Source: Tubulanus polymorphus (taxonomy: Eukaryota; Animalia; Nemertea). Taken from it: a DNA stretch of 64,000 bases. This document shows, piece by piece, positions 13,221 to 63,753 of this stretch (its first letter is position 1; each line of letters starts with the position of its first letter). Both the position numbers and the translations under genes were made by a program. The stretch is taken from contig NC_134029.1 in assembly GCF_964204645.1 (NCBI RefSeq), positions 18,656,950 through 18,720,949 of the forward strand. Direction: 5' to 3'. The notes beneath the pieces were generated by a model. The model saw only the letters and a program-made list of their open reading frames with translations. It was not told where the DNA came from and did not search any database.

Positions 13221-15611
13221 GTGCGGGTATTCACTGTTCGCTGTGTAAGAGAGGTCAAATGATCATTTAGTACCATAAAGTGTTAGCTCTTCGGTTTTAC
13301 TTCAAAATGAAATAAGAACGTTAGGCTCCAAGTTAAAGTGTTCGTTTTTGAAAGGCGTTCGGTTGTAACGATACAGTTATCGTCACATTACAATATAATG
13401 TGACGTTGATAGTGTTGATATGAATCTATATATATATAGATACATATCAATACTATTGTCTTATTGATTCATGCATTGCAAGAATTCCATATTTAAAAAA
13501 TGCCATCGTTTACAGTGGAGCACGTGCTATGGTCGCGAGAATTTCGTGCCATTATCATCGCTAGGAGATTGAACTAAAAGAAGGCACATTCAGTCGTCCA
13601 TCAATTCCGAAAACGATAGAAAAGACAAGTTCAGTCGTCTTTATCAATCACAAAAGTAGAAAAAGGCACATTTTCATAAGACGATGCAGATAATTTTCAA
13701 CAAATAGGCACACCATCGTCAGGATTTTTGTTTCCTATTTATGGCCTGGAAACTATCTGAATGCAGTAAAAATCTATAAGTTCTGTTATCCTTAGCAGTG
13801 GCGCCTGGATCCGCCTTTGGTTTATAGAATTCCGCTGAATCATTCTGTTGGCCGACCCCTAACTGAGAACATCCAGTTATTGATTATTTCGTTTATTTGA
13901 AATTACTGAATAAGGTCATAATGATAAATTGATATAGAAAGGCCCGATTTAAAGTTACAATTTAATAGTTAAAAATTTGATAGAGCTTCGGAGAATTTGG
14001 GAAGAGTCTCACAACAAAGAGCTGAGCAGAGCTTTACCATGCAGATAATATATGTGGTAAAGTGAAAAGAAGACGATGTCTTATTGCAAACAAACCTATC
14101 TAAACAGGGATGATTTGTGCACTTAAAATCCAAGAAGAAGATATCAGTATCCATAATTCTGTTAAATTCAGGTTAGATTGTATATAAGTAAATGACCCAG
14201 AGGTACCGCGTTTTTGGGGAATGCCCCAAACAACAATGTCCCACGAGAGGATGAGTTGTTATGGACATGAGATAATATTTTCTATACAATGTTGACAAAA
14301 GAATTTTCTCAACCCCTTCCAGGACTAGGTGAAAATAATCTATGCTGATTTGTTGGAGTACTTCGTTGTTTGGTGGTTAATATTTTTCTGGAAGTACGTC
14401 GAAAAAGCAATGATGTTACATTCGTAACGCCTTTATTTTTTCTATTTCAATTTTTTCTATTTCTATTGCACTGACTGGTCCAGGCTTCTGGAAATATCCC
14501 GTTATACTAACTTGTACATAAACCATATCGGACTATGCCCTGTCAACTTGCGCGCCAAGCTTGTTTGGACAAATCAGATATTTCACAGCCAGTTAGTTCT
14601 TAAAAGTCCTAGGAATATTCCAACGACAAATTCTGTATTGTGCAGTTCAGTTTAGAATATTGCCAGTACAATCGGCGGTCATTTCAACGGATGATAGACT
14701 TGTGTAAGACACCATTGAAATGCGGAACAACAAATTCTTTTCACAGCTAGCGGAGATGGCCTTTCAGGCCTTTCCTTTGTCCCCTTTATTTCTGCATAAG
14801 TTCGTAACCTGAACAGAATTAAAAGACAATCAAGCGCGGAAATTAATCGTGCTAACACGTCTATAGGCAGACATTTTGCCAGCCAACATGCGTGACTGGC
14901 TTAAATTTGAAGTGGGGAAGAATATAAAAGTCACGTATGGCTCGCGAAATACCAAAAGAAAATGTGAACAATGATTTACCTTATGAACTCCCCATCGGAA
15001 AAGTACTGGTGTTGTCTGAATGGAGTAGCCGAGTCACAACCATTTTGTGTTTGACTACTGGTGTAGTCAATTACGACCTAAGTGTTAAGAATACCACACT
15101 AACCGTACTGCCGTGACATTCTCTCCGGAACACACGACACACTAAAACACGGTAAAATATCAATTACTTCTATACGTTTTTCTTCGATTCTTATTATTCT
15201 TATCTGTATTTATAGTCAAATTAGTTTCGTTGATATTCTAATTATTTTGACTCATTAGCACATTGTGCAAATTCATCTATAAGAATATTTGACAGATTTC
15301 GCGCATGAGATATGAAATAGTGAAATTGGTGCTACGTATCAGCCTGGAAAGTGCGATAAACGCTGTATTTCACTCTGATAACGTGACTTTTTTGATTAAT
15401 TAAAAATCTCTTTGAATTAAGGAAATTTGATACCTTGTTTCTCCTTTCTGGTTAGCTTAAAAGTTGACCCGGCCGGCCGCCTATCTACCATATGTATCAC
15501 TTTTTTTTATCAGATCCAATCAATTTTACAACAACACCCCCGGCAGCTATAGAAATGAACTGATTACGTTATTGCATTTTACAAAAATGTTTGACTTACT
15601 CGTTTCAGAAA

Positions 15612-16181
15612 ATGAATGTTTATGTGGTAATTTGCTGTTTGTTGGTCCTCGCAGTATCCATCGATACCGCCTCCGCTTGCCAAAAAAGTTATGAAAAATG
15701 TGAATCGGATGCTGATTGTTGTGAAGGAACCAGAGGTCCCGATCGTAAATTGATATGCAAAGAATATCTCAACAAGAGAGATAATAAATTATGTTTGTAC
15801 GTGCCGGTGGCAGCGACATGCAGTAAAACCTACGAACCGTGCACCACGGACGAAGAATGCTGCGAAGAGGATGGCAAGGTAATAACTTGTCAGCTGCGCC
15901 GTGGGAAAAATGTCTGTCGTGAGAAAAAATGCAAGAAGACATACGAAGAATGCGAATCGGATTCCGACTGTTGTCCAAGCGAAGATTCCGCTAAGGAATC
16001 GATTTGCAAAAATATCTTTTTAAACAAGAAAAAGATGAAGATTTGCGCGTTCAAGCGTGTAGAAAAGTGCAAAAGAACCTATGAACCATGTCAATCCGAC
16101 CAGGAGTGTTGCAAGGAAGGAAATGGTGAAAGCCTAATCTGTGAGAAGTATTATGGCCAGAACGTCTGCATGAGGCCTTAA
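15612..16181 (+). CDS. Secreted cysteine-rich protein with 4 tandem knottin/ICK-like domains
   Basis: tttcag|aaaATG context; signal peptide MNVYVVICCLLVLAVSIDTASA; four C-x6-C-x5-CC-xn-C-xm-C units with consensus C-x-K-T-Y-E-x-C-x-S-D-x-D/E-C-C; AATAAA at ~16401. Confidence 0.88.
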   Translation: MNVYVVICCLLVLAVSIDTASACQKSYEKCESDADCCEGTRGPDRKLICKEYLNKRDNKLCLYVPVAATCSKTYEPCTTDEECCEEDGKVITCQLRRGKNVCREKKCKKTYEECESDSDCCPSEDSAKESICKNIFLNKKKMKICAFKRVEKCKRTYEPCQSDQECCKEGNGESLICEKYYGQNVCMRP

Positions 16182-18374: not shown

Positions 18375-20338
18375 TTAAACTATTTGAACTTCGACTTCTT
18401 CTCCAACTGTAACGCTAGATGTCTCGTCATTCTTATCTCCAACTTCTCCGGCTGTACCGGTATTTGTCTCATCGTTTTTAACTTCGTCAACATCAATTCT
18501 AACTGCAACTTCTCCGATCGTAATGGTGGTTGTCTCTTTATTTTCAACGTCCTCAACTTTATCGTTTTGATTTTCGTATTTCACGGCGGTTTGAAACGTA
18601 AGGCGTTGTTGCGAACGTCGTTGCTCGCAAAAATACGTGACGAATTTATACAACTGGAAGAATAAAATCAGCCCGTTTTTCAACATGAAAAATAGGATCG
18701 AGTTGTCCACTTCGTTGAACGCGTAGATCACGTAGTTTCGAACGCCGAAGAACGGCCGTCGATGAACACACACGACGCGATGATACTCCATCGTTCGTCT
18801 GCCAGAATCGGGTATTTCTTTGCATTTCTGTTCTTGTTCGCCGTCAAAACGAGCGTGAACAACATTAAACTCCACGTCCAGACGCCCAATAGAGTATAGG
18901 TCAGGTGGTATCGATGTTTCCTCGCGTCGAGCTCCATGAGCGTTTCGTAGAACTCGACGATATCGGCGCCGCTTCCCAGATACACGAGCAGCAGGTCGGA
19001 AAGCTGACGATGCGACAGAGATTTGTTCGGCAATACCAAACGCGCGATCGTCAGAATGATCAGCATGAATTGTTCGATCGTGATGATCCATTTTTCGGTC
19101 GTGAACTCGAACGGCAATTCTAAATCGAGCTGTAATAAATTAAACAGAAAAGATGCATCATTTCGTAGCGCGTTCAGATATTTTTAGGTAGATTCAATTT
19201 CGATCGAAATTCAAGTCATTTCTTGTCGATTAAAGCCACGAAAACAGGAAGTGTTTGGTCCAAATTTGGCCTGCACCACATAAAGCCGGGATAGTCCATC
19301 CACACGGGTGCCAATAGGATCACGCCTGAACCTGAGCCAAATTTGGTCAGTGGTCAAAATTTTTGAAACTGGTTCCGGTAAATGACTCACTTTGCTTTGT
19401 TCAAACATTGTATTGAGTGGTGTAATTTGGCACTGGCTAAATTTGACTCGGGCCTGATCTGGGTCGATTTTACCGGGGCCAAATTGTTTCTATGTGATTG
19501 CGGCTGAAGAATAGGAGCATCGCCGCTGGCTAGGGTTTGATCATCCAACGCCAACCCTGGTAAGCGAGGGTGGAACTGAGAAACTTAGATTCCGCATCAT
19601 CGATAATCCAAGTTGCACATTTCTGTTTGGTCCGAATTGGTTTTTTAAATCCAATTTACTAAATGTCAGTTGTGATTTAGATGAGTGGTCGATGGAACGA
19701 CGGTGACTTGGACTGGAACAAGTCAACAGTCAAACAACTCGGAACATTTCCAAACTATAGGCCTACCTTATCACTGACTTCACGGATTGCCGTTTGGATA
19801 TTCTTGTTTTCTTTTTTCGCCGAACTGTGATCGTAATGTATTTGCAGAATCCAGATGCAAGTGACATTTGGTATGAGAAAGAACAGAAAGCAATAGCAGA
19901 ACCTAGAAAAGAAACAAACATTATCGATATAAATGCTGATAATGGTATAGTCAAACGTGCTAAGGTCTTTATCTGATAAATCATCACTTAAGTCATAAAT
20001 CATCTCGTAAGTCATCTCTATTTTCGAGTCCTTTCAATTTGCCAAGTGTAAGTTCATTAGTTATAGTGATTGAAGCTAGTTTGGCTATAAGTATACATCA
20101 GTATCATACAAACGTTTTTTTTTTACCATTTACTCTCTACTCCTTTGTATTTGACGACGCGTATAACGCCTTCGATCGCTAACGGTAGAAGTAATAGCGT
20201 AAAAAGCCAGCCGGACTGGTAAATATCCGTCACCCTCCATATACTAACTAACGCGGCCGACGCAAGAACAGCCCTGACCGTCACTGCTCGAATTATATTC
20301 GCGAAATCGGTAGAACAGTTCTTTCTTCTTTCCACCAT
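18375..20338 (-). pseudogene. TMEM26: TMEM26-like membrane protein with a 1-nt frameshift (pseudogene or assembly error)
   Basis: Exons 20338-20127, 19902-19767, 19129-18375. Motifs IEQFMLIILTIARLVLP, LSDLLLVYLGSGADIVEF, VWTWSLMLF. The conserved DGPF motif is broken at ~18755 (GAC GGC CGT instead of GAC GGC CCG TTC); FFMLKN...QLYK continues in the other frame. Confidence 0.85.
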
Positions 20339-21565
20339 TATCCTCCTCGCTTTCTGTTCTGCTGATATATATGAATTTGTTTCTAAAATGTTACTTCTCT
20401 AAAATGTTACTACTGTATAAGCCCCGTCCTGAGACTAACTTATGTTGTATTCTGCTAAGACTAGAATAGTAGCGGCAGCCACGCATGGGTAGCTTTATTT
20501 ACTCGACCGGTCAACTATAGAGTTGCAATATTCATATCTATCTTTATTGTCTCTTTTATGGTTTTACAACATTTAGCGAGATTTACACAAAACATTACTC
20601 AATTCGTTTCACCTGTATGATTTGCAGTGCTCTCTGGATCACAAACTTCCACATTGAACTTTTCACCAATAACTGTTTCGCCGCCCTGGCTTTGTCTTAA
20701 GCTGGTCAATAAATGGAATAGAATCTTTTGACTTTAAACGTGATGGCCTTCTTTTACTAATTAACTAACAGGTAGATGAACCCTAGTGTAGGTACAGGGT
20801 GTCATAATACATTCAATGTAGGCTATGAATGCACGAGTCATTTAATACAGTGGAACCTCCAATGCAGCAGAAAACCCTAACGATGCTTTATGACATGCCA
20901 AGGAAACACAGTTAAGTAAGGTGCGTCATATACCTTCAGTAAATTCAATGTCATACTATTGATGTTTTCACATACAATATTCATTTCATGAAGAATGACA
21001 TTTTACAAAAAAAAGTGATATGCGTCTTACGACACGCCATACAGACATTATAGCAAAACGCAAAATACATGTTATACAAATAAACAAGGATTAACAAAGA
21101 GGTAGATAGCAGTCATTGAACAGGGAATGAATGCTGTATGAATAGATACATACATGGCTTGCCTTACAGCGTATCATAATTCGATATGAATTTGAAGGTT
21201 ATTGATGATATCTGAATATTCTTATCAAAAGTGTGATCTTAATGGCCAGATTCGAAGGAAGTCACATTTTGCAGAGATACTGCTGAGAAACTTCAATTCG
21301 AGGTCTTCCAATCATTACCAAATGGGTTTTTTTCGTGTCTACGTTCAGGTATCCGGTATTGAATAGAAGAATGCTTTGTTAATATTCTGACATTGCAGAA
21401 ATTACAAGTAATGATATTGATAATAATAAAAATGATGATAATCCAGAGTGGAAACGTGGTTTCCTGCGACTGAGAGCAACAGAAAAACTCAATCAACGTC
21501 CTTTCATAAAAGAGTTGACTTTTGACGAGTAGACGAATTTTTTGCCGAAGCATAGTGTCCGTATC

Positions 21566-24500
21566 TTATCCAGATGGCCGTGGGCAATCTAAAAAAATCC
21601 AAAACATCCAAAGCTTAAAATAGCATTTCAAATACCTTCTACACTTGTTCCTAATCACAAAAGCGAGTATTATTTAATACAGCAATCAGTATTTTGTATT
21701 CATTGTTTTCTATACTGTATATCTTCATCATAGATAGAAAATCCCACACTGATATGGTGAAAGATGATGCCGAAAAAATTCACTATGGCTAACGATATAT
21801 TGATTCGACGTTTCGACTATAATCTAATAGTCATCGTCGGGAATGAAGATGACTATCTTGAAGATGACCAAGATGAAGATGACTATCTTGATGATGATGA
21901 TCTTGAAGATGAAACGTCGAATCAATAAATCCTTAGCTATAGTGAAGCTTTTCGAACGGGATTCTCTATTTATCGTCACAACATGGAATAATGTATCTTC
22001 AATGGGTTATATCTTCATAAACTAGATTGTATTGTGATTTCACTACAACATAACCTTAATTTCCCTTCCATTTTCTTTCATGAAAACAAAATTTCAAAAA
22101 AACTGTATGAATGTGGAATGTGAAGACTTGTAATTTTGACTTATCAATCTTTTAACTTATCAATCAGCCTTATCTGGTGGACTTATTCATTGACATCACC
22201 AGGTGGTGAACTGGGATGTGAATAATCCCGTTCTAGAATCCCGTTCTAGAAAACACTTATCGGCAAATGTTTTTAACTTTCCTTGGTGAGGGTCTGAAAC
22301 TCCCTCTATGAATATGCCACCACTACGGAGGCGTCATGGCGGCAAACTGTTAGAAAAAGATTTTCGAGGTATTCTCGACCTGATTTTACTTGAAATACAC
22401 TTCGAATACAACTTTTAATCGAGAAAAATAGTAGTTCGATTAGACTAAGTTATGGATAGAGTCGAATTACTTCCGCGAACACGTATGGGCCCAAATGCTG
22501 TTGGCTGTCGTAATTGATGAAATTGGCGATTTAGAGTCAATGATTTGACCAATGATATCGCGCAGATGTTTACGACTCTTGGCCCAAATTTGAGTTTCGT
22601 ACCTATAGTTGACTAGTGGTCGGAACTAATAACCGAATGCGCTTAATTTCCGAACTATTTCCGGACTATAGTTCCGACTAACTGACATTCGGTTTCACTT
22701 AGTTCGACTATAGTCGACTAACTCGCTAACCGAAGTTAGCCTTGGCTGAATTGTGACTGACGCACAAGTAGGTTTCCGAATTATCATTTAGTCCCCAATT
22801 ATGCGAGGCTGGACTGTACCATATAATACAAATTATTATTTCCCGTATGTACGTTTGGGGAAAATATTGTTCTGTCTTGGATCATGTTAACAAGTGTCTG
22901 TGCTGTTTGATGTTTTCAATTCCAATTTATCATAAGAAAGCATGGTTTAAAGATATTTACAAACAAAACAAAAATACGATTGAGAAGGCCTAAGAAATAT
23001 ATATGAGCTTGCGTATGAACACTGAAATATGAACTCGCAAACCGAGCTCATAAACATCGTTGTTAAAGGTTTACTAGGGTAGATTTAAATAGTAAGACTT
23101 ACGAAGGCGCCGCTCCACAAGAACATCTTTGACGCTCCTTGTCGTGTACGCGAAACGATACACGCAATTATTGTCATCCCTGTATTGGCATAATCTGTGA
23201 GAGCGATCGTTTTCTGGAGTGAAATGATAATTAAACATAATATGATATGCCAATATGCACCTTTGAGTCGCCAAATGATATTTCTAACCTTGCATGTTGA
23301 ACATGTGGAAGTTGTTACAAAACATTTCTATGCAAACGCGATTTCGTGAATCAGATTCGCAATGTATGATGGCGTAGCCATCTCTGTTCAACAAAAATCT
23401 TTAGTAGCAATCCACACGAGGATTTTTACGGAAGAGCATTGCGGCCACATGACAATTTTTTTGTAAACTCGAGATTTCGACTTTTAATCTCGAAACTTTA
23501 CACGCATTCGACGAATATTCGGTCACTTAGAATGACGTTATCGTGCTTGCTAAGGCAGTATCGTATTTCGGCATTATTTAAACTTAGCTTGAAGAGAGAA
23601 AGATAAAACTGATCTCGTGCCATAGCGTGAATATAACAACATACTGTGCGCACATGTGTTAAAAAGTAAAAAGTCGAAATTTCAAGATTAAAAGTTGAGA
23701 TTTCGAGTTTCAAAGTCAAAATTCCGAGTTTCAAAGTCGAAATTTCGACCTGAAAAAAAATGTTCATGTGACCGTAGATTTAAGTAGGGCACTAAGCGTT
23801 CTCATGTTTAAATATTTCGAGGATACGCCGCTTATTCAATTGAGTACCGAAACACCAGGCCGAGTAAGCGCGGGAAGCGTATTCCCCCTGACGGTATATG
23901 TAGGCTACGGCTTGATTTAAAACATCATGTCCCATCGGTGAGGAGATGAACTGTCTGAATTTATTGAAATTATGAAGATCACTCCTATGACTGAGAACAG
24001 AGGTCCAATTAGCGCTACCTGGTAAGTTGTCGACTGGAAGCATTCTTAAATGGCGGCAATTAGAACGACAATCTTCTGCGTTGTATCTCGCTGATCCCCA
24101 AATCATACATTCTACGCAATTTCTGAGACGTGCACACTGACCCGGACATGTCTTGAAATAAAGGAATCAAAAGGGTACATATTTTATGTATATTCATTTA
24201 ACTGATATACATCGCAATTTAATAGACTATTTCAATAACCCCTGGATTGTGAAACCATGTTAAACTACTTTCGATCTTTCTGCTTAAAGTCTTTTCGATC
24301 GTCCAATCTTTCAATCACAATGTAGTGAGGGTTTTCGTTGAAGCAAATCCTCTAAACATGTCTGACTGACCACCGTCTGGGTCATTTGACTAAAGGTTTT
24401 TCACTAAAAGATAACTTAAAGGGACAATAATCAGCTTTTGAGGGGCCACCAGACTACGTGGCCATACCTAGCATCTATAAAAGGTATAGAACAAATCGAT

Positions 24501-25324
24501 TCAATTTGCACAGAGCATATTCCCCCTTAGTCAATGGACGTCACCCAATTCGGACCATTCCAACTTCTTGGCTAATGACGACACAATTATTGTCTGGCTC
24601 AAATAAACTAATACAAAGTTATTGCTTTTCCGCGTACGTAGACGACACCAAAAGGTACCTTGGAAAATTGGAACGACGAGAGAGTTTTTACTGATAGTAC
24701 TCCTGAAGTTTCGTTGATAACTAATTTCTATAAGTTATCAATCTAAAACATTTTTACAAACCTCCTTTTTCAGTTAATGTACATACCGGACAGTCTTCGC
24801 AAGTAGATCCCATGTAATAGCTGTTACGATGACACAAACATTTTCCACATATGCAGTTACCTTTGCCATTGCAAAGCATCTGTAATTGAACAATTATGAA
24901 TGAAGATTTACATGATGATGAATGAAATTTTTTTTCATTTGACACTTGAAATCAAAATGCCATTTTGGTCGATCGATGCTCTATGTGTTATAAATATTAT
25001 GATATCCGCTTGTTCAACCGATGCTGAATTTGTTTCAGATTTCACTATGGGCTTTACTGTGGAATCGCCATAAGTATTCTTTCTTATATGCTGTATTCGT
25101 TTTTAGAGAAGTGACAAGTACCCCGTTTGTTGAAAGGCAGTTTTCGACCGATGCGTGGCATTCGTCGCCTACAAAAACAAATTCTGAAAATCGTCCCTCG
25201 TTGAAAACAAAAACATTTATGCAGGAAAATGCTGACAACGATTGATAACGAATCACCTACCTAGAACGGAACGCCCAAAATAGCAGAAAACGGAAAAGAA
25301 TATGAGTTTCTGTGACAATGCCAT
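21566..25324 (-). CDS. Secreted integrin-beta-derived mini-protein (signal peptide + I-EGF4 + beta-tail domain), 156 aa
   Basis: Six GT-AG exons with compatible phases: 25324-25261, 25168-25122, 24879-24787, 24151-24019, 23213-23103, 21588-21566 (471 nt). Translation MALSQKLIFFSVFCYFGRSVLG-DECHASVENCLSTNGMLCNGKGNCICGKCLCHRNSYYMGSTCEDCPTCPGQCARLRNCVEC...LCQYRDDNNCVYRFAY...ERRLHCPRPSG*. Confidence 0.8.
21736..21968. repeat. Penelope-like palindromic repeat remnant
   Basis: Inverted GATTCGACGTTTCGACTAT / GAAACGTCGAATC arms around (GAAGATGAC)n; related to 63281-63453 and 63490-63600. Confidence 0.5.
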
Positions 25325-25962
25325 CTTCACATTTATTAAACAGACAAGCGATTCAGTGATCGCTTTGCTAACTGTTTGCGGAAATTAGTTGACCTCAATT
25401 ACTACGTTGTTTTGGCTACTCATGATCAGGATAAGTGATTGATTGTGTCCCGTAATGCTTATAATGACAGTGTTGTTATCTTTAATTTGCATGAATATCC
25501 TAATTTTTAGGTTGTGGATATAAACGGTGGTGGTTTGGGATGTGATATTATTACTTGTTTTGATCATGGAAGCGTTTCTGATTACTTTGCGTGTATAATG
25601 CGAACAACCGCAGTCAATATTCATTGAAAAGTCCATCGGGCAGTCTAGAGAAATTATCTTCAAAAAATGCCAGTGCAATCGGCGGTCATTTGAATGGATA
25701 ATAGACTTAAGATTACCATTATTAGAATGCAATACAATATATTCTTTTCATTGATGGAGGAGGTGCCTTTTTAAAGAAATGACTATACAGAAATAAAAGC
25801 TGCTGGTCCAACTAACACTTTATTTTTGCTATCATACTACAAATTAGAAATCAAAGCATTAACGATCTCAATACAAATCATAGTCGCTGGTAATGGAAAC
25901 ACAAACAACATCAAGAATAGATGTATAAATCTGTTGTGCATAAACCGAATCACCAATTCTGC

Positions 25963-26658
25963 CTATATAGGTCCAACGCTATCGCCTTTCTCGCCTTTCT
26001 TCTTCGGATAGCAAGCCTTTCTTGATTTGCCATTGGTACTATTGCCATACGGCAAGCACTGAACGTCCATTCCCAGACGCTTACAACAGTCGGAATCGCT
26101 TGAACAATTAATGTTAACGCAGTCTAGTCGACAACGCTTCCGTCCCAACAATCCCTTGCACACCGCGGAATTGCCACTGCGGTCGCTACAACAGTCCGAA
26201 TTGTCACTGCATTTCGAAAAAATACGTTTGCAATCCGGTCGACGTCGACAGGTGCCGCTTTTTCCATCCCCGATGACGCAAATTGTTGCCTTACCGTCGT
26301 TAGGACAACATTCCGAATCTGTGGTACACGGTTTATCAATCGCGCTGCACTCCTTTGCCTTTGACAGCTTACACACGGCGCCACTGCCTCTTACCTTGCA
26401 TGTAGCTACCATTCCAGGGCGATCGTCTGCTGCGCAACACTGATCATTAGATTCACACGATTCGTATCTAACGCGGCATTTTGACGGCAGACAGAATTTG
26501 CTTGCATCCTTCGAATTCATGAACGGTTTTCGGCACGTCACTCCATCTCCACAACACTTGTCACCCAAAGAACAAACGCTTCTATATTCTTTGCATCCCT
26601 GCGCGCTGATGTGCGCTACTACGAAGAGCAATAAACAGCTTCTCACCAACGCAGTCAT
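25963..26658 (-). CDS. Secreted cysteine-rich protein with 5 tandem knottin/ICK-like domains
   Basis: tttcag|aaaATG context as in gene 2; signal peptide MTALVRSCLLLFVVAHISAQG; five C-C-CC-C-C units (fifth has C-x4-C); 231 aa; upstream TATATAAA and a candidate 5' UTR donor at ~26822. Confidence 0.88.
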   Translation of the reverse strand: MTALVRSCLLLFVVAHISAQGCKEYRSVCSLGDKCCGDGVTCRKPFMNSKDASKFCLPSKCRVRYESCESNDQCCAADDRPGMVATCKVRGSGAVCKLSKAKECSAIDKPCTTDSECCPNDGKATICVIGDGKSGTCRRRPDCKRIFSKCSDNSDCCSDRSGNSAVCKGLLGRKRCRLDCVNINCSSDSDCCKRLGMDVQCLPYGNSTNGKSRKACYPKKKGEKGDSVGPI

Positions 26659-27007
26659 TTTCTGAAATAAGAAGGACGAACAATGTTAGTAACTTTGTCG
26701 AATCGAGAAATAATGTTCAACTTTGAGAGGAATAGTTCAACTTAACGAACATGAATTGAATATTCGAAAGATCCATTACTGATTCTATGTCCATATTCAG
26801 TAATTTCCATGATATCACATACCATATGTTTCTCAAGCCGATGTCACCCAGGGAATGTCGTGAATGCAACGGGTTTATATATATATATATACATCGTAAA
26901 CAAAGGAGCATTCATGCTTATCAGCATTTCGCGTAAAGCCGTAATATGCTTTAAACGATTGTGTAGTTGCAGTGAACGAGGACAATCTTTCTTTTGACTA
27001 GAATATC

Positions 27008-27801
27008 AGTAATAGGGGTAATGGGCTTTCAAGCCAAAGGTCGAACGGTCGAGCTCATTAAAAAACAAAACATTAAAAGTAATTTAAAACTATAATATAT
27101 TTTCATAACCGTGTGTATTTTATATTATAACTAAATATTTATTCTAAGATATCAATAATTTAAATTTAAAAAGCATATTGTATTAAATCAATTGGTCGCT
27201 CCACTTCGCTACCGCTCCGCTCCGCGACCAATTGATTTATTTACAATACACAAATTCATATAATCAAATATATTTTAATAATGATAATTATTCTATTATT
27301 CAACTGAAATACACACGGTTATGAAAATATATTATAGTTTTAAATTACTTTTAATGTTTTGTTTTTTAATGAGCTCGACCATTCAACCTTTAACCTGAAA
27401 GCCCATTACCCCTATTACTCTTAAAATAATCATGTACATGAATAACATTTAAATTGACAGATTATTCAATATAAAAGTATATATTTACAACATTATTTCA
27501 ATATTCATATTTGTGTGAGTTAGATTTTAAACATTAAAAGTGTTAGTAAAGTGTGATTGAAATAATACATGATATAAATCATTGAACTTCTAAAATCAAT
27601 ATAGTAAAAAAATATGTATAATAAATGGAACCAGAACAACCACAAATTATCAATATTACCAATAAGGGTAAAAAAAATATTTTAAAGCGTAAGGTTTCAG
27701 CGAACTCTAACTCTTTTTGAATTTTTACCTATTTTAATAAAAATTTGATATATAAATGTGCACAAGATTAATTAAAGTTCCCGCGAAAGACATGAGTAAT
27801 A
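27008..27801 (+). repeat. Left terminal inverted repeat; outer 412 nt form a fold-back hairpin
   Basis: Arms 27008-27120 and 27307-27419 are complementary (5 mismatches); central perfect 15-bp stem 27185-27199/27224-27238 with a 24-nt loop. Confidence 0.9.
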
Positions 27802-28605
27802 AATATATAAATTCAATATTATATTATTTAACTGTTAACAATAATTTAGCAGATATTTCAGGAGTAAATATAAATAGGTATTATAAATCTGAAAATAATG
27901 AATTAATTGAAACATCAGATATATTTTGCGATAATATAATGCTATATAAAATCATGTTAGAAAAAGAAATTATAAAAGAAAATAGAACAACTTTTCTAAA
28001 CGTTAATCAGAGAAAGATAACACATTATGAAATTATAGAATGTTTTAATCAAGGAGATATTATATTGGATAACTTAGCTATAAAAGTTACACGTTTTTTA
28101 ACAATTCATGATGATAATTCAAAATCATATATATTAAGTAGAATTAATCAAGAATTAAAATTAACAGATTATATTGCTGTATTTAAAATTTCATTATGCA
28201 ATCAAAATTTAAATGAATTAATACAGAAAATGGATAATATTGAAAAATTATTAAATGAAAAAAATTACAATATATTAGATGTAGATGTGACACAAGATTT
28301 TAAAGGATCATTTAATTCAGATGAAATAAAATCAATGTTCGAAAATAGAAAATATAAAGTTCTAAAAGAATTCTCCAATGGTTGTGTTTCAGCATTACAT
28401 AAGGATGATGAAATAAAGATCTATAATAAAACAGCATGTCAATTCAAATCTCCTGGTGTAAATATAAATTTCGGTTCAAATTTAATGAGTTACATAAATT
28501 GCTATCAAGAGAGGAGAATCATTTGAAAAATCAATTGAAACAGGATTAATTAGAATTGAAATAACAAGTATTTCATATTACTCATGTCTTTCGCGGGAAC
28601 TTTAA
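27756..28605 (+). pseudogene. Rep_trans (pT181 RepC/RepD-like) replication-initiator-like gene, frameshifted and 3'-truncated
   Basis: 256-aa ORF 27756-28526 with ILDVDVTQDF and IKIYNKT; the +1 frame from 28516 continues ESFEKSIETGLIRIEIT, then runs into the right TIR. Motif order matches Rep_trans (R)xDxAxD, IRIYNK, RxE. Assignment is from remembered motifs only. Confidence 0.55.
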
Positions 28606-29368
28606 TTAATCTTGTGCACATTTATATATCAAATTTTTATTAAAATAGGTTAAAATTCAAAAAGAGTTAGAGTTCGCTGAAACCTTACGCTTTAAAATAT
28701 TTTTTTACCCTTATTGGTAATATTGATAATTTGTGGTTGTTCTGGTTCCATTTATTATACATATTTTTCTACTAAATTGATTTTAGAAGTTCAATGATTT
28801 ATATCATGTATTATTTCAATCACACTTTACTAACACTTTTAATGTTTAAAATCTAACTCACACAAATATGAATATTGAAATAATGTTGTAAATATATACT
28901 TTTATATTGAATAATCTGTCAATTTAAATGTTATTCATGTACATGATTATTTTAAGAGTAATAGGGGTAATGGGCTTTCAGGTTAAAGGTTGAATGGTCG
29001 AGCTCATTAAAAAACAAAACATTAAAAGTAATTTAAAACTATAATATATTTTCATAACCGTGTGTATTTCAGTTGAATAATAGAATAATTATTATTATTA
29101 AAATATATTTGATTATATGAATTTGTGTATTGTAAATAAATCAATTGGTCGCGGAGCGGAGCGGTAGCGAAGTGGAGCGACCAATTGATTTAATACAATA
29201 TGCTTTTTAAATTTAAATTATTGATATCTTAGAATAAATATTTAGTTATAATATAAAATACACACGGTTATGAAAATATATTATAGTTTTAAATTACTTT
29301 TAACGTTTTGTTTTTTAATGAGCTCGACCGTTCGACCTTTGGCTTGAAAGCCCATTACCCCTATTACT
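28576..29368 (-). repeat. Right terminal inverted repeat with terminal fold-back hairpin
   Basis: Reverse complement of 27008-27801; hairpin spans ~28957-29368. Confidence 0.9.
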
Positions 29369-30518
29369 AATATCAACGTCCAACGCTCCACCAGCTCTGC
29401 AATAGCCGTTACATGTTGTACTGGAACACGAAAAGCAGCCATCCACACGCCAAATACTTTTTGCCCGAAATCCAATATCTGTTGATGAATGTTTGTACTC
29501 TAGATAACACTGGACTTGAAATTTTTCATGGGAAAAAAATATTGGGAACCAAAATTCAAGAACATTCGTTTGGATTAAAGACATCAAAATCAAATCCAAA
29601 CTGGATACCAATTAATGCCACAAGAAAATAGGTTCACTGTTTTCGATAATATCATTTTAACATAAATCGTAATGTCTGGAATGACTAAATCTATGAATCT
29701 ACTTCGATATATACTAAACATAATTATAATGATCATCGTATATATTCTCGGAGAAAATTTTTGGTTACCATTCGTCATTTGAGTGCGTTGCGCTCTATTG
29801 GCATACCTCTATTGCCATTTTCAAATCAGATACACGTCGGGAAACGGCAATGGAAATTGAAAAAAATGTGTGTTATCTATCCGAAATCAAGCCTATATTC
29901 GCCGAACTGACCAAGACGTCTGAATGTCTGAGCCCTCCGACTTCGTAACAACCGGTTCAGAGTTACCCTGGTCGAATAAATAGAGTCAATTTTCAGTTTA
30001 GTTTTTGTTCACCATTCAATCAAATCACATGATTGATCAATTCAAACAAAAAGGCAAAAAGAGAATCAACAAGAAACAATAAAAAGATTTAAACAAAGCA
30101 ACAAAAAGACAAAACATATATTCACTTTATTTACAGTTGTCAACACACATCAAGTTATTATAAAATGCCGATCTAGCCTCCCCAAATCTATTACTTCTCA
30201 TTTACAGCAAGTTTTCCAACGATGCGCTAGTGCGAGAACAAGATATATCATTATTATCATTGTTGGTATGCATGTTGTTATACAACAATATCATTGCTTT
30301 TTCCAACATTTTTTACAGGCCATGTGGTGCGGTACGGAGACTGATTTTTGCGATGTTTTATCAACCGCCGATTTCTAGACACTGTGGCGCGGCGGCGGCA
30401 ACTAACTAACGAAGTCCGCTGTGCAGTCCGCATCAGCAGAGACTGTGCAGTCAACCCCAAGGTCGTTGAACCAGTTTAGATCGGTTTGGTTTCGTTTGAA
30501 GCGATTTAACGCGCAGCA

Positions 30519-33500
30519 ATGAAGAATACTCGTTCAACTGGTTATTTGTTGATGATATTCTTGATAATCTTTGCATCAAACGTTGAACGAAATGCTGTTG
30601 AAGGGATTGGTCCATTGGCACCAGCTGTAGCAGTGGGTACTGCAGCTATCACGTCGTTTTTGTTGACAAGTTACGATTCGATCAAATGTCAATTCGTCGA
30701 ATGTTGTACGAATTCGTGGATCGATGCAAATATAACTGGTGAGTTTCATGGATAAACTATTTAAATGAATGCAGTGGATATTTTACTGCACATCATCGCT
30801 GATTGGCTGATTTACACCGCATGCGCACAGAGGTGCGCGACTTAGAAAATTCAAGGAAAGTGTGGAGAAGAGTTAGAGAAAATAGAGCGGATAGAGCGAG
30901 ACTCGAACCCGGGCCAGTAAATTACTAGTGCAGCGTCTTCCCACTAGACCACTGAGCTCGCTGAGAAGCAACCGAAGGTTTTAACCATCTATACTAGTAC
31001 CTCACCTTTACCCTAATCCTATCCCTAGGGGTAAAACGGACCCTAACCCTAATCCTAACCCTCTGGGTCGTTTAGACCCTAAACCCATAGGAACCCTAAC
31101 CCTAAACCCAATAAAATGATTTTATTGTTGCTTTTATTGATTAATGCTATAATTTATAGTATTGATGGTATGGTAAAATAGCGGAAGTGTACACTTTGCG
31201 GTATACGTTTAATTATCCACTTGGTGAAATGAACGCAGTGGATATTTTACCGTATACGGCAGAGTCTTTACTTCTGCTATTTTACCGTACATCGTCGCTG
31301 ATTAGCTGATTTATGCCGCGTATCCGCACTGAGGTGCGCGACTTAGAAAATTCAAGGAAAGTATCATACCACTAGAACAACGAGCTCGCTAAAAACCAAT
31401 CGAATGTTTTAATTAGATATTGCACCTAACCTTACCCTAATCCTATCCCACGGGTAAAACGGCTGCCCGTGCAACGGTGGATTGTCTCTGCCTTAATTAG
31501 GTGAGTAATTGATGGTCAAGAGCCCCCAAATCTCTATATGTGATCCTAACACTTGCCTGTGCCAGAAGGCTTTGAACGAATTGAGAGTTCGGGCGAAAAC
31601 TTGCAAGTCACCCCTATAGCTCAAGTGGTAGAGCAATCGCCCGGCAAGCGAGAGATGGTTCGAGTCCCGGTCTCAGTGGTTGACAGATTTCGCTCATCCG
31701 CTAGTACTTCACTAATTCTTTAATCACACACATGATTATAATTAGTTACAAGCTCTACCGCTGCCCGTGCAATGGTGGGGTGTCTCTGCCTTATTTAGGT
31801 GTGTAATTAATGGTCAAGAGCCCCCAAACTTCTATCTGTGATCCTAACCCTCTGGGTCCTTTTGACCCTTAACCCATCGGAGCCCTAACCCTAAACCCAA
31901 TATAATGATTTTATTGTTACTTATTAGTTAATACTATAGTACATAGTAATGATGTACAGTAAAATAGCCCTAGCGGAAGTAAACACTTTATCGTATATGG
32001 TTGAATATCCACTTCGTAAAATGAAACAAAATTTCAGATTTGCTATTTATGATATCATCTACCGTGGCGAGTCTCGATGCCATCAGGTTTAGATCCTTGC
32101 TGTTGAGGATGTACCTGCACCTGCCAGTTGGCAATCCAATGAGATGCGCAAGTTCTACTTTCTGCATCACGATCGTCTTTCCCAGTTACAACTGTCTGAC
32201 ATTGTGACTGACAGAGACTATAATATAATTGCACACTATCGCCGATGTTCACATCTCAGTCCACCTAAGGCTGACCTCCGCCTTGCTTAAGGTTCTCAGT
32301 GAAATCAAATACACGTCTTTGAAAAACTAGGCAAATTATCATTCTATGGTTGCATTAGTGTATAGGTATTTCAACAATGATTGGGCCTATAAGACTTAGT
32401 TGATCATTGTCAGTTTATTCTTGAGGCAGAGAAAGAAATTATTAGAGTTAGATTGTGTCAATATTATGGATCCTAAAAGTTTTTCTATTGGCAAATGATT
32501 TAACATGTTTACCGGTAGTTTGCCAGGCAGAATTTGTAAAGCTACACTGAATATGCTTCATTTTCATCAAACCAAACCTCAAATCTTGCTGTATACATAA
32601 ACAACTTGAATTGTACAAAAATGAGAATTAAATGATTAGCTCCAGTACAAACTACATGGAAATGCAGAAACATAACCACTAGGCCTGCATCGTTAATTAA
32701 TATGGGCTTTTTGTTTCAGGGTTGTCTCGTTCATTGAACACAAGACTACACGGGCAACACCTGGTCATAGGAGCAACTCTTAAGGCAGTTAAGGTAAAAT
32801 GATTTCATAGAAGTAGATATTTTGACAATGCGGCTATTTTGCCAATGGCTCATTTTGATTTGTTACTGGCGTACATGCACCCTTCAGAGAAATTACTGTA
32901 CTTCACTAAAACAGGCTTCAAACCCACCACCTACTGTCTCAAAAAGAACTCACGAATGTCAACTATCATTATATTAGGCCTCATTCAACCAATAGGCCTG
33001 TAGCCCTTAAGTAAATCCTTTTGTTTGAGTCCCGGTCTTGGTGGTGGACTGTTCCCCGATGCCACAAACATCGATACCTTGCGACAACTGGGAGTTAGCC
33101 TTCTTTACTGCTGTCTGTGCACTAGTGGGTGAAATGAAGAAATTCCATGAAATGCCAGTTGTTCATTGGTTATTTATCCAATGGTTAAACTGAAATCAAT
33201 TTTCGAGCAACTCAGCTCTGGACACTGTGGCTTTACAACTAACTGACATTGAAATTTCTACTGCGTGTTTATTTCAGGCGCATGTTAACAATCCTGACCC
33301 GAAGAAAGCTTTGACGCTCTCGTTTCACGGGTGGACGGGAGGCGGTAAGAACTACGTCAGTCGAATGATTGCTGACCATCTGTACGTGAAAGGAATGCAA
33401 AGCAGATACGTGCACCTGTTCATTTCAACGTTACACTTTCCTCACAAAAGTGAACTAGAAACGTATAAAGTAAGTATGTCAGTTGATGCCCCCCATAATA

Positions 33501-36500
33501 TGAAGGCAGTGTCATAGAGGGCTCATGTACCAGTGAAATGTGTGAGCGCAAATTAGATACAAGCACAGATTTTAAGACTGGTATTAACTTTAACCCGGGC
33601 TAACTAACTCCAGTTCCCGGTTAATTCCAGTCTATAAAATCAGGCCCTGGGTTCTGGACTAAAAATGCATGTTTATGAATTATGTTTCCATTGCAAAAGG
33701 TCCAACAAGAATTTTTTATTTTCTATCTGACTTATATTCTGAGGGGCCCTGCAACAAAATTCAGGGGTTTGGATCCCTTGGACACCGTTCCTTTTTCAAA
33801 TGAGCAATTTTCAGTTTTTATTTGCCCACTTGGGACTTTAGTCCCAGCAGGCTATTGCGTTCACTTTTCGTCCGTCAGTCTGTCTGTCCATCCGTAGACG
33901 GAATCCTGTTATTTTGGGGAGTTTTGAAGATGCTTCAAGGTAATGTCTTGATATTTGGTTTATGCATGAATCTACCCTAGACACATCTTCAGCCCAAAAA
34001 CTGGCCCTGTCAGAATCAAGATGGCCGACTGGCAGCCATTGGTGTTCGCCAAAATCAGCACTTTTTACACGTTTTTGAACTTATGAGGGAAATTTTGAAG
34101 ACGCCTTGTTTAATTACCTTGATCTTTTGTATATATTTGATCATCTTGGTGTCATCAGTACTCATTCGTAGGTGGGAAAAAGTTTTTCGACATTTTATTG
34201 ATACCTAAGCATATTTTGTTACAACAATGAATTAGAAAGTTGTAGCTTATAACGTGTTCTATGATTTTGGTGAGTTTCAAGTTCATTGGTTTTTGTATAT
34301 GGCCACCAGGAGGCGTTTAATAATACAATATCTTAGTATTTCTATATTATATTTGTACCAACACATATTTTGTTACCACAATCAATTGCCAAATTGTAGC
34401 TCATGACATCATCTATGATTGTGGTGAGTTTTAATGAAATTAGCTATTCTATATGGTCACCAGGGGGCGTTGAATAGTAGAATAACCTAGTATTTCCTTA
34501 TTATATTGGTACCTAGGCATATTTTGTTACCATGATCATTTTGTAAAGTTGTAGTTCATGACATGTTCTATGATTGTGGTGAGTTGCAAGGTTATTGGGT
34601 TTTGAATATGGTCACCAGGGGGGGGGGTTGAATAGAAGAATAACTTAGTATTTCCATATTAAATTGGTTACGAGGCATATTTTGTTATCACAATCAATTA
34701 CAAAATCATAGCTGCTGACATGTTCTATGATTGTGGTGAGTTTCAAGGTCATTGGTTTTTGTATATGGTCACCAGGGGGCGTTGAATATTGAAATTGTTA
34801 GATTGTTGAGTATTTGAAACCACTTCCCAAGTGGGCATGGTGTCCCTGGACCCCTAGTATAAGTTAAAATATGCCAAAACTTTTCCATGCTGACTAAAAA
34901 GACTACAAGTACTAAACAAAGAATGAATATTGATAAACTGCTGTGTCGATTTATTTAGGATCAGTTGCGGGGATGGATAAAAGGGAATGTGTCGATTTGT
35001 CCACAGCAGTTGTTTATTTTTGACGAAGTCGATAAAATGCACGAATCGCTGATAGACACGATCTCGTCGTATCTCGATTATCACAAAGAAATCAACGGCG
35101 TGAACTATAGAAAATCGATATTTCTTTTTCTGAGGTAATGTTAAAAAGTGTATCTCGAAAATCATGAAATCTTAGCTAGGCAAAACCTTCTAAAACCTTA
35201 CTCTATTAAGGTCCGATGCATGTGATGCGGGAAAACATGGAAACAGGAGATAGAAACATATTTCTCTGAGTGTTTTGCTGCGTCGTCTACAAGAAACGAG
35301 AGACATGGTTTGGGAAAACAATGTTTCCAGGATAAAAAATGTTTGGCTCCATGTTTCTGTGTTTCCCTGCCTTTGGAATTGGGCAAAATTGATGGCCCCA
35401 GTTTATGATATCTTATATTTATTAGTCTAACAGAACGCAGAGATTAATCAAATAATCTTATTGAAACTGTTATGATTTGATTACTGTTTCTCTGATGATA
35501 AGATTTGGATGATTCTCAAAAACTTCTTGATTGAAAAATCTTTATCAAGTGTGGGATTATTCATTAGCTTCTACACCGAGTATAGTGAGAATACTGTTCT
35601 CAGTGTAGAAGCTAATGAATGATCCATATCGGTCTATCTGTCACGCTTGAGCTTAATTTGACCGTAACAATTTCTTAAAGTCTAATCTGCCTTCGTATTC
35701 TAATTCGTAGCAACACAGCTGGAAATGATATTTCGAATGCAGCCTTCAGTCACTGGCAGGATGGGGGCAAAAGAGAGGATATTTCATTCAAAAAAATGGA
35801 AGAGATAATTACTCTTAATTCATATAATGAAAAAGGTCAGTACTTAGTGCGACATTCTTGATAGACGTACATGTGGCGTGTTAGCTCATAGAAAATGAGA
35901 TCCCATGATTAACCCTTTCAGTGCGTCTACACAGCGATGCGGTGTATAAATCGGTGATGGATTTTGCTTGTACAAGCAGCTTGTACACTGCACTGCAGTG
36001 TATTGATGTAATTAGTTATTAGTCTTACCCCTATTGAAAGATGGCAGCACCTGTCAAACATAGTGACATATTAGTAACTAACAATACACTGCGTAGCGGT
36101 GTAGACGCACTTGAGTGGTATTCCCATTATTTAACACACTAGGTTGGAATTTTTCAAAATTATCAAATTATCTCCAGCACTATAGGGTTTTAATTAGTTA
36201 GCACTGAAAGGGTTAAGCTAAGAATAAGCTAAAAAAGATTATTGAGTTTACCCAGTAAGTAGTGATGCAGAACGTTGTGGCATTGTCAGGTGTCTACTGG
36301 GATAAACAGTTGGAAAATATGTTTTTGACAGCCCAGAGTTGATATCTTACTTAGAAAACAGATGCTGAATCAGGTGTTTATATTGCTGCTTGAATTTTGA
36401 TTCAATGCGTTTTACAGGCGGTTTGTGGCATAGTTCGTTGATTTCGAAAAATCTGATCAACGCGTTCATTCCGTTCTTGCCGCTGGAGCGTATTCACGTG

Positions 36501-36674
36501 AAAATGTGCATCAAAGACGATTTATTATCGAAAGGGCACCGCCATCCGTCCGAAGAACTGATCAGTTCAATCGCCGACGAGATGCATTATTTCCCGAAAG
36601 AAGTGAAATTATACTCGACATCCGGCTGCAAACGGGTGACTGAAAAAGTGGATTACGTAATGGAAGAAGTGTGA
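30519..36674 (+). CDS. Torsin-1-like ER-lumenal AAA+ ATPase
   Basis: Exons 30519-30738, 32720-32793, 33278-33469, 34959-35134, 35711-35835, 36418-36674. Signal peptide and hydrophobic segment, ECC, LHGQHL, Walker A GWTGGGKN, Walker B FIFDEVDKM, sensor-1 FLSNTAG, PFLPLE, redox sensor-2 SGCKRV. Confidence 0.95.
30764..32020. mobile_element. Two tandem copies of a non-autonomous TIR element with CCCTAA-like repeats and tRNA-derived segments (torsin intron 1)
   Basis: Shared blocks AAATGAA-GCAGTGGATATTTT...GAGGTGCGCGACTTAGAAAATTCAAGGAAAG at 30764 and 31227; ends TAGCGGAAGT...TATCCACTT; tRNA-like A/B boxes at ~30890-30960 (-) and ~31615-31670 (+). Confidence 0.6.
33820..34858 (+). mobile_element. 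Helentron-associated non-autonomous element (HINE/DINE-1/pearl-like) with internal tandem array
   Basis: Subterminal inverted repeat TGCCCACTTGGGA / TCCCAAGTGGGCA, (CTGT/CCGT)n microsatellite near the 5' end, about four ~155-bp tandem units (34205-34790), short 3' stem-loop. Confidence 0.65.
35913..36212. mobile_element. piggyBac-type MITE
   Basis: TTAA|CCCTTTCAGTGC...GCACTGAAAGGG|TTAA; second copy at 49539-49826. Confidence 0.8.
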
Positions 36675-38306: not shown

Positions 38307-41300
38307 CTAGATAAGGCTATGTGCCTTTTTTATAAAAACTGCAAGATTCCTTAGGACGTTTGGGTTTTCTGACGTAAAAAGGTTCATTAATTTTCTTATA
38401 TTAGGAAACGTTACTATTTGTTGCGGTATGTACCGACTTCTTAAACTTTCGAAAAAAGTACACTCCATTATAAAATGGTATTCGTCGCCGATTTGCCCTA
38501 GGTTACATTTGGTACAAAGTCGTTCATTTCGGGGGATATTTTCATATCTTCTTGTTTCAATCGGTAGATTATGATTAGAGCAACGAAACCGTATTACATT
38601 TGTCCTGAGGTCAAATGGTAGTGCTAATGAACATACTTCCCGCCCCCAATTCGGCTTAATAATTCTATAGGTATCTAGTTTTGTTGAAGCTGCGATAGTC
38701 TGGTGCCATTTCTGTTTGAATTGATCTTGTAAACATAATTTAACAGTTTCTGATAAATACCGGATATTCGGGAAAGATTGTTCGTACCAAATGTAACCTA
38801 GACCACAGTTTTCTAAGATAGACTGAATACAAGTGATCCATTTACTGGTCTTACCATTTACATGATTTTTTATTAGGATACGATACATTTTACTAGAATG
38901 AGAGTTGCTCTCTGTGATCAGATGTCCCCAAAACTTAACCATTCTGACTTTTATTTGTATTTCAAAAGGAAAACGACCTAATTCTCCATAAACCATAGCA
39001 TTTGGAGTTGCACGTTTCAATTTCAATAAGTATTTGCAGAACATTAGGTGTATTTTCTCGATTGCATCTAAGTTCGAGAAACCCCATATTTCACTACCAA
39101 AGGTAAGGATCGATCCCACCATTGCATCAAAAATTTTAAATGCAATGTCTATAGTTAGGGAGTATTGCTGTACTTTTTTAAGAACAAAAAATAGTGTTTT
39201 TTTTGCTTGGTCACAGATATCTTTTTTGCATTTAGCGAAATTTCCAGTATAATTAAAGTGTACTCCCAAATATCTAAAGTCAGATACTGTATCCAAGGCT
39301 ACCCCCTGATATAGAAAATGGGCTGTCTGTTAGATCGTCTTTTTTCGAAAACTATGGCTTTGGTTTTTTCGACATTGATTACTAACTGCCATGTTTGGCA
39401 GTAATCCACAACATGGTCAAGTATATTATGCAGTTTGGAAGCATTGTCAGATAATAATAAAGTATCGTCGGCATATAAAAGTATTAATATGTTAAACCAG
39501 AAATCATCCAGCTGGAAATCTAATCCTTGACACCCTTTCTCGTATAAGAAAGACTCGAGGTCATTGACAAATATGGAGAAAAGCACTGGTGACAGATTTT
39601 CCCCTTGACGTAACCCAATTTGACTATCTATGCTTTCTGATAATCGATCGTTTACCTTGACCTTAGATTTAATATGTTGATACATGTTATGAATCACTCG
39701 GAGGATATTTCCTGTAATTCCCGTTAAAATTAATTTATGCCACAGTGCTTTTCTCCATATTGTATCGAATGCTTTTTGGTAATCAATAAATATACAGTAA
39801 AGCTTCCGCTTATTACTAGTCAGAATATCTATAAGGGAATGCAATGTGAAAATATGGTCCATGATACTACGATTTTTTCGAAATCCAGCTTGATTTTCAT
39901 TCAGTAATTGGTTATCCATCAAAAACTCCTCTAAACGTTTATTAATCAGGCTCGTAAACAATTTGCTCATACAGCTTAATAGAGTAATTCCTCTGTAGTT
40001 ATCCGGATTGGAAGGGTCTCCCTTATTCTTAAAGATTGGAGTGATAATACCTACAGCCCACTCTTCCGGAATGCAGCCAGTTTTCAAAATATTGTTAAAC
40101 AACAAAACGAGGGTAGGCATGATTTCATTTTCTGCAGTTTTGAGGAATTCGTTTAAAATTTCGTCGTTTCCAGGGGCTTTATTATTTTTGAGGCATTTTA
40201 TACATTTAGATATTTCTCCCTCAGTGATTAGCCTATTAAGTGCATCATCATTGTGGTCATGAAGGAAGTCATTCACATTGAAAAAATTACGATTATCATT
40301 TTCTGCACTACGGTTTTGGTTAATGACGGAAAAGTGGTCAAATAAATCATCTAGCGACGCTTTACATTCATTTGGTTTTTCCTTTCGGAAATATTTCCAA
40401 AAAGCTTTTGGATCGTCTTTTGCTAACTTTCCTATTTGGTCATTGTGCAATTTAACTTTCTTTTGTTTTGATATCTTTATCGATGTTTTATACCTCTTAT
40501 ACGCCGAATTCAGATTAGTTCTATTTTGGACGGATCGATATCTTTTATAATTTCTTTTCGCTTTCCTATAAATTCTACGGTCTCGTTTCACTTTATAGTC
40601 ATGTAACAAAGTTTTTGGTTTGTCAAAGTTAACCCGGCTTCGGCCCATTGTGGCCCCTGCCGCCTTATTTAAAATGTCGCATATACGCTTATTCGCACAG
40701 GCGCTGTCTATTATATCATTTTGAAGTTCGATATTTATTTTATTCAATTCGGTTTGGTTGATTGCCTCTCTAAAAACATCGCTTCGACCACTGTTCCATT
40801 TAATTTTACCTGTTATGTTAGGCATGTTTTGTACATTTGTATATGGACTTCTCGTGTGTGAAATAGAGAAGGAACACGTAACAGCACAGTGTACGTCTGA
40901 AATCATTTGGTCATAGTCGTTTACATTGAAGTTCACGCATTTTGACAACAAATAGGGAGACATAATAAAGTAATCAATAACATGGTTATTTTCCCCTTTG
41001 ATGCACGTGTACTCACCGATTCCTTTATCCCTACCTAATCTGCCATTTGCAATGAACATGTTGTGATTTTTACAAAAGTCTAACAAACGATAACCCCAAT
41101 TATTGATAGAGGAGTCTTTGTTTTTCCTATTGAGTAGACCTTGTATTTTTAGTGCATCAAGGTTATGACGATCTTCCACAAAAACTTCGTCTAGGCCTAG
41201 GAATTCCATGAGTATTTCGTCATGGGGTAAATAGTCTAATAACTGCTTTGTGTAGGCATTGAAATCGCCACATAGACAAAAATAAGCATCGGTAGAACTC

Positions 41301-45510: not shown

Positions 45511-63753
<18,243 letters not shown>

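Follow-up and report, generated by a model that had tools for sequence, protein, structure and literature searches.

The integrin-beta mini-gene and its transcript

A 64,000-nt stretch of contig NC_134029.1 of the palaeonemertean Tubulanus polymorphus (the window) contains, on its minus strand, a six-exon gene for a small integrin-beta derivative that is predicted to be secreted and lacks both the integrin head and a membrane anchor. We refer to it as the mini-gene and to its product as the mini-protein. RefSeq carries the product as XP_074650314.1, "integrin beta-PS-like isoform X2", which is identical letter for letter to P0001 in our protein comparisons. Because that record probably derives from the same assembly, it is not independent support for the gene model. 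All five introns (92, 242, 635, 805 and 1514 nt) run from GT to AG, with phases 1, 0, 0, 1 and 1. The coding sequence of 471 nt yields 156 residues with 19 cysteines, one in the leader and 18 in the mature part.

Coding starts in exon 1 (25261..25324), which holds the start codon, a predicted signal peptide (residues 1-21) and a phase-1 donor; it is placed by the splice model, the spliced contig described below, the start context and a predicted local distance difference test (pLDDT) score of ~50 for residues 1-20. The ATG stands in a strong context (A at -3, G at +4). The predicted leader, judged by hydropathy and pattern only, has a 10-residue hydrophobic core with V at -3 and G at -1, and no hydrophobic stretch follows it in the product. 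Exon 2 (25122..25168) encodes the predicted cleavage site and the first two cysteines of I-EGF4, as placed by splice model, contig and beta3 alignment. Exon 3 (24787..24879) carries the remaining I-EGF4 and the first beta-tail cysteine, with Pfam as additional evidence. The helix region of the beta-tail lies in exon 4 (24019..24151) and its sheet in exon 5 (23103..23213), both from splice model, contig, Pfam and structure model. Exon 6 (coding part 21566..21588; splice model, contig and beta3 alignment) ends with the final beta-tail Cys-Pro and a stop codon where the membrane helix would be. Exon 1 extends 5' over 25325..25596, on the evidence of the spliced contig reaching 25596; this part, with four upstream ATGs, is either 5' untranslated region (UTR) or read-through from an upstream knottin gene. 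The 3' UTR of ~1 kb (20523..21565, AATAAA at 20548) is defined by a contig of run X4 to 20576 and a piece from run X5 ending at 20523. All these features are on the minus strand. A further AATAAA at 25337, just 5' of the ATG, was discarded as a functional signal; another allele alters it in four runs.

Pfam assigns residues 73-154 to Integrin_B_tail (PF07965; E 4e-17, 62.9 bits against a cut-off of 33.6) and, below cut-off, residues 29-65 to EGF_integrin (E 1e-4). By phmmer, residues 25-153 align cysteine for cysteine with human beta3 560-689, that is, I-EGF4 and beta-tail (E ~1e-18). The mature cysteine spacing begins C-x6-C-x7-C-x5-C-x-C-x2-C-x-C. Of the four I-EGFs expected of an integrin beta the mini-protein has only one, best matched by I-EGF4. 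An AlphaFold model built on a 65-row alignment has a mean pLDDT of 85.6, with 98 of 156 residues at 90 or above. All 23 Foldseek matches at E <0.001 are integrin beta chains, and the best VIA-align match is beta3 (Z 12.1, root-mean-square deviation 7.6 over 122 aligned residues), with unrelated folds at Z no higher than 4.3. These results bear out what the earlier note had read from the letters: six in-phase exons that join a signal peptide to I-EGF4 and a beta-tail, 18 mature cysteines in integrin spacing and a stop replacing the membrane helix.

Neither the Pfam Integrin_beta domain (beta-I, with the metal-ion-dependent adhesion site, MIDAS) nor PSI was matched in the mini-protein, and no such exon was found in the contig or the window. 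The stop codon falls five residues past the last cysteine, so that no membrane helix or NPxY tail is encoded. Because it lacks a beta-I domain, a membrane helix and a cytoplasmic tail, the mini-protein can neither bind ligand via MIDAS nor signal inward, and so cannot serve as an integrin receptor. Hydrophobic stretches past exon 5 in other frames were considered and discarded, since none is spliced as a coding exon: they are intronic, fall within the 3' UTR or are situated past the transcript; the intronic one downstream of exon 5 coincides with a simple repeat.

Contigs of six sequencing runs (X1-X6, which carry no tissue labels) were compared with the window, X1 and X3 only over 24900-31000, a span that contains the whole of intron 1. 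In X4, a single contig of 1732 nt at depth 78 joins all five introns at the predicted GT-AG edges. It maps in full, from 25596 to 20576, and since none of its 1732 letters falls outside the mapped pieces and their joints, it contains no additional exon. We take X4 to be RNA from these GT-AG joints rather than from the run record. The contigs of X1, X2 and X3 lie within or across introns and none of the mini-gene joints is present in them; spliced support therefore comes from one of the six runs, and no joined form turned up as DNA. X5, from a separate study, gave no spliced contig but did yield small fragments of the 3' UTR, which end at 20523 (20 nt beyond the AATAAA). No X6 contig matched the window.

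The RefSeq name, integrin beta-PS-like isoform X2, would suit an annotation fragment, or a short isoform from a gene that encodes a complete integrin beta. We regard this as very improbable. The 1732-nt contig leaves no room for further exons, and the mini-gene is bounded on its two sides by the knottin gene and TMEM26. Transcripts with upstream head exons or a downstream transmembrane exon would, by the earlier note, have told against its proposal. No head, membrane or cytoplasmic exon occurs in the X4 contig, and because tblastn of 15 integrin-beta and beta-like proteins against the 64 kb returned nothing at E <0.5 outside the mini-gene region, we place none in the window. A search for a full-length parent with exon 4, a weak test, retrieved only P0001 among the 78-2000 aa proteins of a 5.8-billion set.

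Leg-only relatives, phylogeny and selection

An indexed, stricter search of P0001 against proteins of 85-273 aa returned P0001 alone, and relatives were found when 1.84 billion cluster representatives were searched without an index. This gave 382 matches at E <=0.001, the best 150 of which were classified heuristically. Among these 150, the best non-self match is 38-48% identical, and 13 proteins, P0001 included, have a hydrophobic leader joined directly to I-EGF4 and a full beta-tail (leg-only hereafter). A fourteenth, P0156, came from a further search, and P0129 was left out of the count because its beta-tail is incomplete. In the five leg-only proteins submitted to it, Pfam found beta-tail and EGF only. 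The earlier note had implied that the architecture was unique to one gene; this is not supported, as it recurs in a paralogue, a gastropod and several bivalves. The leg-only design is common to a nemertean and molluscs.

In three of the 14 the stop lies within a few residues of the last cysteine: P0001; P0005 (XP_074648909.1), a Tubulanus paralogue on another contig (27.4 Mb against 24.9 Mb) with leader, I-EGF4, beta-tail and stop; and P0070 (XP_070188649.1) of the gastropod Littorina saxatilis, which also stops after the beta-tail. The other 11 extend into a linker after the beta-tail. By eye, seven of these have a C-terminus resembling a glycosylphosphatidylinositol (GPI) signal, one a membrane-like end, one an odd long extension and two no hydrophobic end. 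The GPI-signal-like group (P0051, P0060, P0062, P0079, P0095, P0109 and P0135) has bivalve members and a long linker before the C-terminus. All named linker-bearing members are bivalves: Sinanodonta (KAL3859937.1), Dreissena (KAH3775915.1; two clusters) and Potamilus. Four more linker-bearing proteins come from ENA or Logan, and three of these sit on contigs of transcript size. The related Dreissena proteins P0083, P0099 and P0154 lie on one contig with close locus numbers.

A tree was inferred from 52 of 90 rows and 135 columns under LG+G4, after 38 long-branch, repeated-domain or redundant rows were dropped. P0001 and P0005 are sisters (support 99/93), and the path between them measures 1.05 changes per site. 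All 11 linker-bearing proteins group together (87/93), whereas P0070 has no firm place and the backbone lacks resolution. The 14 leg-only proteins are not one clade in the free tree; constraining them to a single origin is not rejected, with an approximately unbiased p of 0.51 (14 rows) or 0.50 (the three soluble proteins). Longer headless forms with several I-EGFs occur in Lineus longissimus (336 aa), Pecten, Octopus, Lottia, Solemya and fishes. Pfam found a beta-I or cytoplasmic domain in none of 14 hand-picked headless proteins and a beta-tail in 13. Because the longer forms are scattered among true integrins, with 11-14 changes over bootstrap trees, the tree suggests that the integrin-beta head was lost repeatedly, although the labels include possible gene-model fragments. 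Three proteins of 446-453 aa (P0159, P0161 and P0162) end after the beta-tail, two of them named from fishes as integrin beta-1-like; P0161 and P0162 have PSI, I-EGFs and beta-tail without beta-I in Pfam, unlike zebrafish beta1tr.

The cysteines are far better conserved than the rest. P0005 retains all 18 mature cysteines against 43 of 107 identical residues (40%) at other sites. Where relatives have lost cysteines they have lost them in pairs (four in P0070, two in P0079, two in P0156), which match the disulfide pairs of beta3. In a neutral simulation of point changes, an open frame with 18 cysteines was kept in 3.3%, 0.14%, 0 and 0 of 20,000 draws at 0.05, 0.1, 0.19 and 0.3 changes per base. 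Given the cysteines kept in the paralogue, the paired losses, this simulation and the lack of a close full-length parent, the data exclude an old decaying fragment but would still fit a loss of function that happened very recently. Long-term selection is well supported, because relatives share the leader-to-I-EGF4 design and the paralogue keeps its 18 cysteines at about one change per site. We conclude that the mini-protein is very probably translated and has long been under purifying selection. The view that this is an intact, selected, predicted-secreted and disulfide-rich protein, as first proposed from the sequence, gains from the spliced transcript, from a paralogue sharing both truncation points and the 18 cysteines, and from the structure model.

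Knottin genes, possible read-through and the surrounding window

Three single-ORF genes (ORF, open reading frame) encode three, four and five tandem knottin-like units at 12021-11587 (minus), 15612-16181 (plus) and 26658-25963 (minus). The last, the upstream neighbour of the mini-gene (25963..26658), encodes 231 residues and is the only one of the three to reach the Pfam Toxin_12 cut-off (21.3 bits against 21). Exact look-up with the starts tried found no database entry for the three proteins, which are possible undescribed multi-knot secreted proteins of nemerteans.

Between the stop of the five-unit ORF and the mini-gene ATG, on one strand, lie 638 nt, and the knottin gene has an AATAAA of its own at 25824. 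The earlier note had missed that the transcript region of this gene extends into exon 1. In X4 the knottin contig, which includes 276 letters without a match in the window (its 5' exon), ends at 25765 and the mini-gene contig starts at 25596. The 168-nt gap between them was considered as evidence of separate transcripts and discarded: it is uninformative because it coincides with a dispersed repeat fragment, and X2 and X3 contigs also break near 25582-25606. This fragment, a 103-nt stretch at 25668-25770, has a 74% identical copy at 14661-14764, each near a knottin gene. The mini-gene may be transcribed from its own promoter, by read-through from the knottin gene, or both.

This arrangement admits a transcribed relic, in which integrin-derived exons are spliced within the read-through 3' UTR of a knottin mRNA and are little or never translated. 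The 5' end of the spliced contig does lie in the downstream region of the knottin gene, upstream ATGs precede the main one, X5 bridges both genes, and the support for translation is from sequence and transcript. However, frame, leader, 18 cysteines and ten splice sites are intact at a divergence of at least 52% from every other library match listed. The paralogue has the same design, the knottin gene has its own polyadenylation motif and the main ATG context is strong. The simulation excludes an old relic, though not a very recent loss. We therefore find a relic improbable.

The same neighbourhood raises the possibility that the mini-protein is a secreted disulfide-rich scaffold for mucus, venom or defence, co-expressed with the adjoining multi-knottin gene, possibly by read-through. 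Three multi-knottin ORFs lie within 15 kb, the nearest just upstream in the same orientation with an X5 contig bridging to exon 1, and both Tubulanus proteins are basic and cysteine-rich. Knottins are among the nemertean toxin candidates in the available part of one report (PMC7460313). However, the argument is one of neighbourhood only, and a contig across two genes does not show a single transcript. TMEM26 (18375-19183, minus) sits inside the knottin cluster, and genes for a voltage-gated channel, torsin and PI3-kinase flank it. Relatives with GPI-like tails include filter-feeding mussels. We consider such a role unlikely, though the most probable of the alternatives named here. In the toxin-paper texts searched there was no integrin-like secreted protein, and the mini-protein was absent at two of the ten places with "integrin" in the supplements of PMC9415933 and at two of the four in those of PMC7460313.

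The remaining features of the window are the 3' end of the voltage-gated channel gene (Ion_trans, SCN5A-like IQ; 1590-7670, plus), the torsin gene (30520-36674, plus), an endonuclease/reverse transcriptase element resembling a long interspersed nuclear element (38307-43093, minus) and the PI3-kinase gene (48008-63211, minus), which we take to be Vps34-like. An AT-rich element of 2.37 kb at 27003-29373 has ~800-nt terminal inverted repeats at 99% (arms of 683 and 131 nt). Each end forms a ~430-nt hairpin and is covered by contigs of very high depth. Its ORF (27756-28526, 256 aa) has no Pfam match above cut-off and no PHROG or Atlas match; a 5-nt insertion at 28514 is present in other copies. 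The element resembles an unclassified multicopy transposon.

Possible function and comparison with known systems

As to origin, it is likely that an integrin-beta or beta-like gene was duplicated, that a phase-1 leader exon was joined to the phase-1 I-EGF4 exon and that the membrane exon was lost. Cleavage of the leader would release a secreted protein of 134 residues and 15 kDa with nine predicted disulfides. We rank first, tentatively and at somewhat short of even probability, the reading that the mini-protein is a soluble ITGBL1-like modulator of adhesion or integrins rather than a receptor. It is placed first because ITGBL1 inhibits integrin activation, a similar role has been proposed for beta1tr, and tethered bivalve versions are easier to reconcile with a role at the cell surface than with one as a toxin. 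The secreted module may bind cell-surface or matrix proteins, most plausibly integrins via leg or hybrid contacts, and so damp or tune adhesion as ITGBL1 does; we hold this step to be evenly balanced. On this view, those relatives that have GPI-like tails would present the module tethered to the cell surface.

Several points weigh against a soluble adhesion modulator. The spliced support is one contig from one sample, and its 5' part contains the four upstream ATGs. An unspliced X5 contig reaches from the knottin ORF into exon 1 (to 25283), and a promoter of the mini-gene's own is therefore putative. The signal peptide was called from hydropathy and cleavage pattern, and translation and secretion are predicted. 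The RefSeq label also implies an isoform X1, which could differ. ITGBL1 itself acts via I-EGF repeats, and integrin binding by the mini-protein is an extrapolation from such proteins. RGD, KGD and LDV motifs are absent from the mini-protein. The soluble members have isoelectric points of 8.1, 9.3 and 4.6, and this differing charge argues against one conserved binding surface.

The fold itself allows another use, that of a cystatin-like protease inhibitor. The beta-tail is described as a cystatin-like fold in the part of PMC1538996 consulted, and residues 71-156 give weak NTF2/cystatin-like matches. However, these matches (Z <=4.3) are at background. I-EGF4 is retained in every leg-only member, and the QxVxG motif of such inhibitors is absent from the mini-protein. 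True cystatins were not among the 50 VIA-align matches listed, which is still compatible with the fold. We judge this use even a little less probable than a transcribed relic. What probability remains after these alternatives and the ITGBL1-like modulator goes to some other binding or structural role.

A more ambitious extension of the adhesion-modulator reading, which we regard as rather unlikely, is an overlooked old lophotrochozoan family in which the lower-leg module is secreted in ribbon worms and a snail, GPI-anchored in bivalves, and binds integrins in trans to set whether they are bent or extended. As a rule, the beta-tail is known as no more than a structural element of the integrin leg. 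Natural proteins of just I-EGF4 and beta-tail, which selection has preserved among nemerteans and molluscs both as soluble and as apparently GPI-anchored forms, imply that the module has a binding function of its own, and a natural version of 15 kDa makes that function testable. Should the function prove structural or generic, the gene adds only modestly to the known cases of integrin domain shuffling. No description of a leg-only family was found in the titles and abstracts of the literature searched, a coverage that most subscription journals lie outside. If such a family is real, the reason for its being overlooked would be that one survey or more detects beta integrins by their beta-I profile. 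In the available part of that oyster survey (PMC7390872), beta candidates were retrieved by the beta-I profile PF00362, to which headless genes would be invisible, and nine of 12 were set aside as lacking a membrane helix.

Secreted integrin-beta derivatives are already known in ITGBL1 and beta1tr, and the mini-protein fits neither by their defining features. It resembles the integrin betas (beta1, beta3, betaPS) in I-EGF4 and beta-tail, with 18 cysteines in register and the same fold, but it has no PSI, hybrid or beta-I/MIDAS domain, no I-EGF1-3, no membrane helix and no NPxY tail. Like ITGBL1 (TIED), it is headless, anchorless, predicted to be secreted and derived from the integrin stalk. 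Unlike ITGBL1, with its ten tandem I-EGF repeats, it consists of one I-EGF and a beta-tail. ITGBL1 is not known to have a beta-tail. By language-model features, ITGBL1 clusters lie nearest to the mini-protein (score 0.84), which we treat as a lead only. The excerpted text of PMC8921176 describes ITGBL1 as secreted and as an inhibitor of integrin activation, citing Berg 1999 and Song 2018. Among the closest counterparts of the mini-protein, XP_074648909.1, XP_070188649.1, KAL3859937.1 and KAH3775915.1 share its leader-to-I-EGF4 and beta-tail design, but KAL3859937.1 and KAH3775915.1 add a long linker and a hydrophobic C-terminus. All four are named automatically and otherwise uncharacterised, and the literature searched gave no function for them. 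Zebrafish beta1tr-1 to -3 are, in the part of PMC1538996 consulted, expressed and without membrane and cytoplasmic domains, and their authors propose them as secreted regulators. The mini-protein is likewise an integrin-beta paralogue without membrane and cytoplasmic parts. However, by the same partial account beta1tr keeps the head with its A domain and ends four residues after EGF-4, whereas the mini-protein retains the nearly complementary part of the chain.

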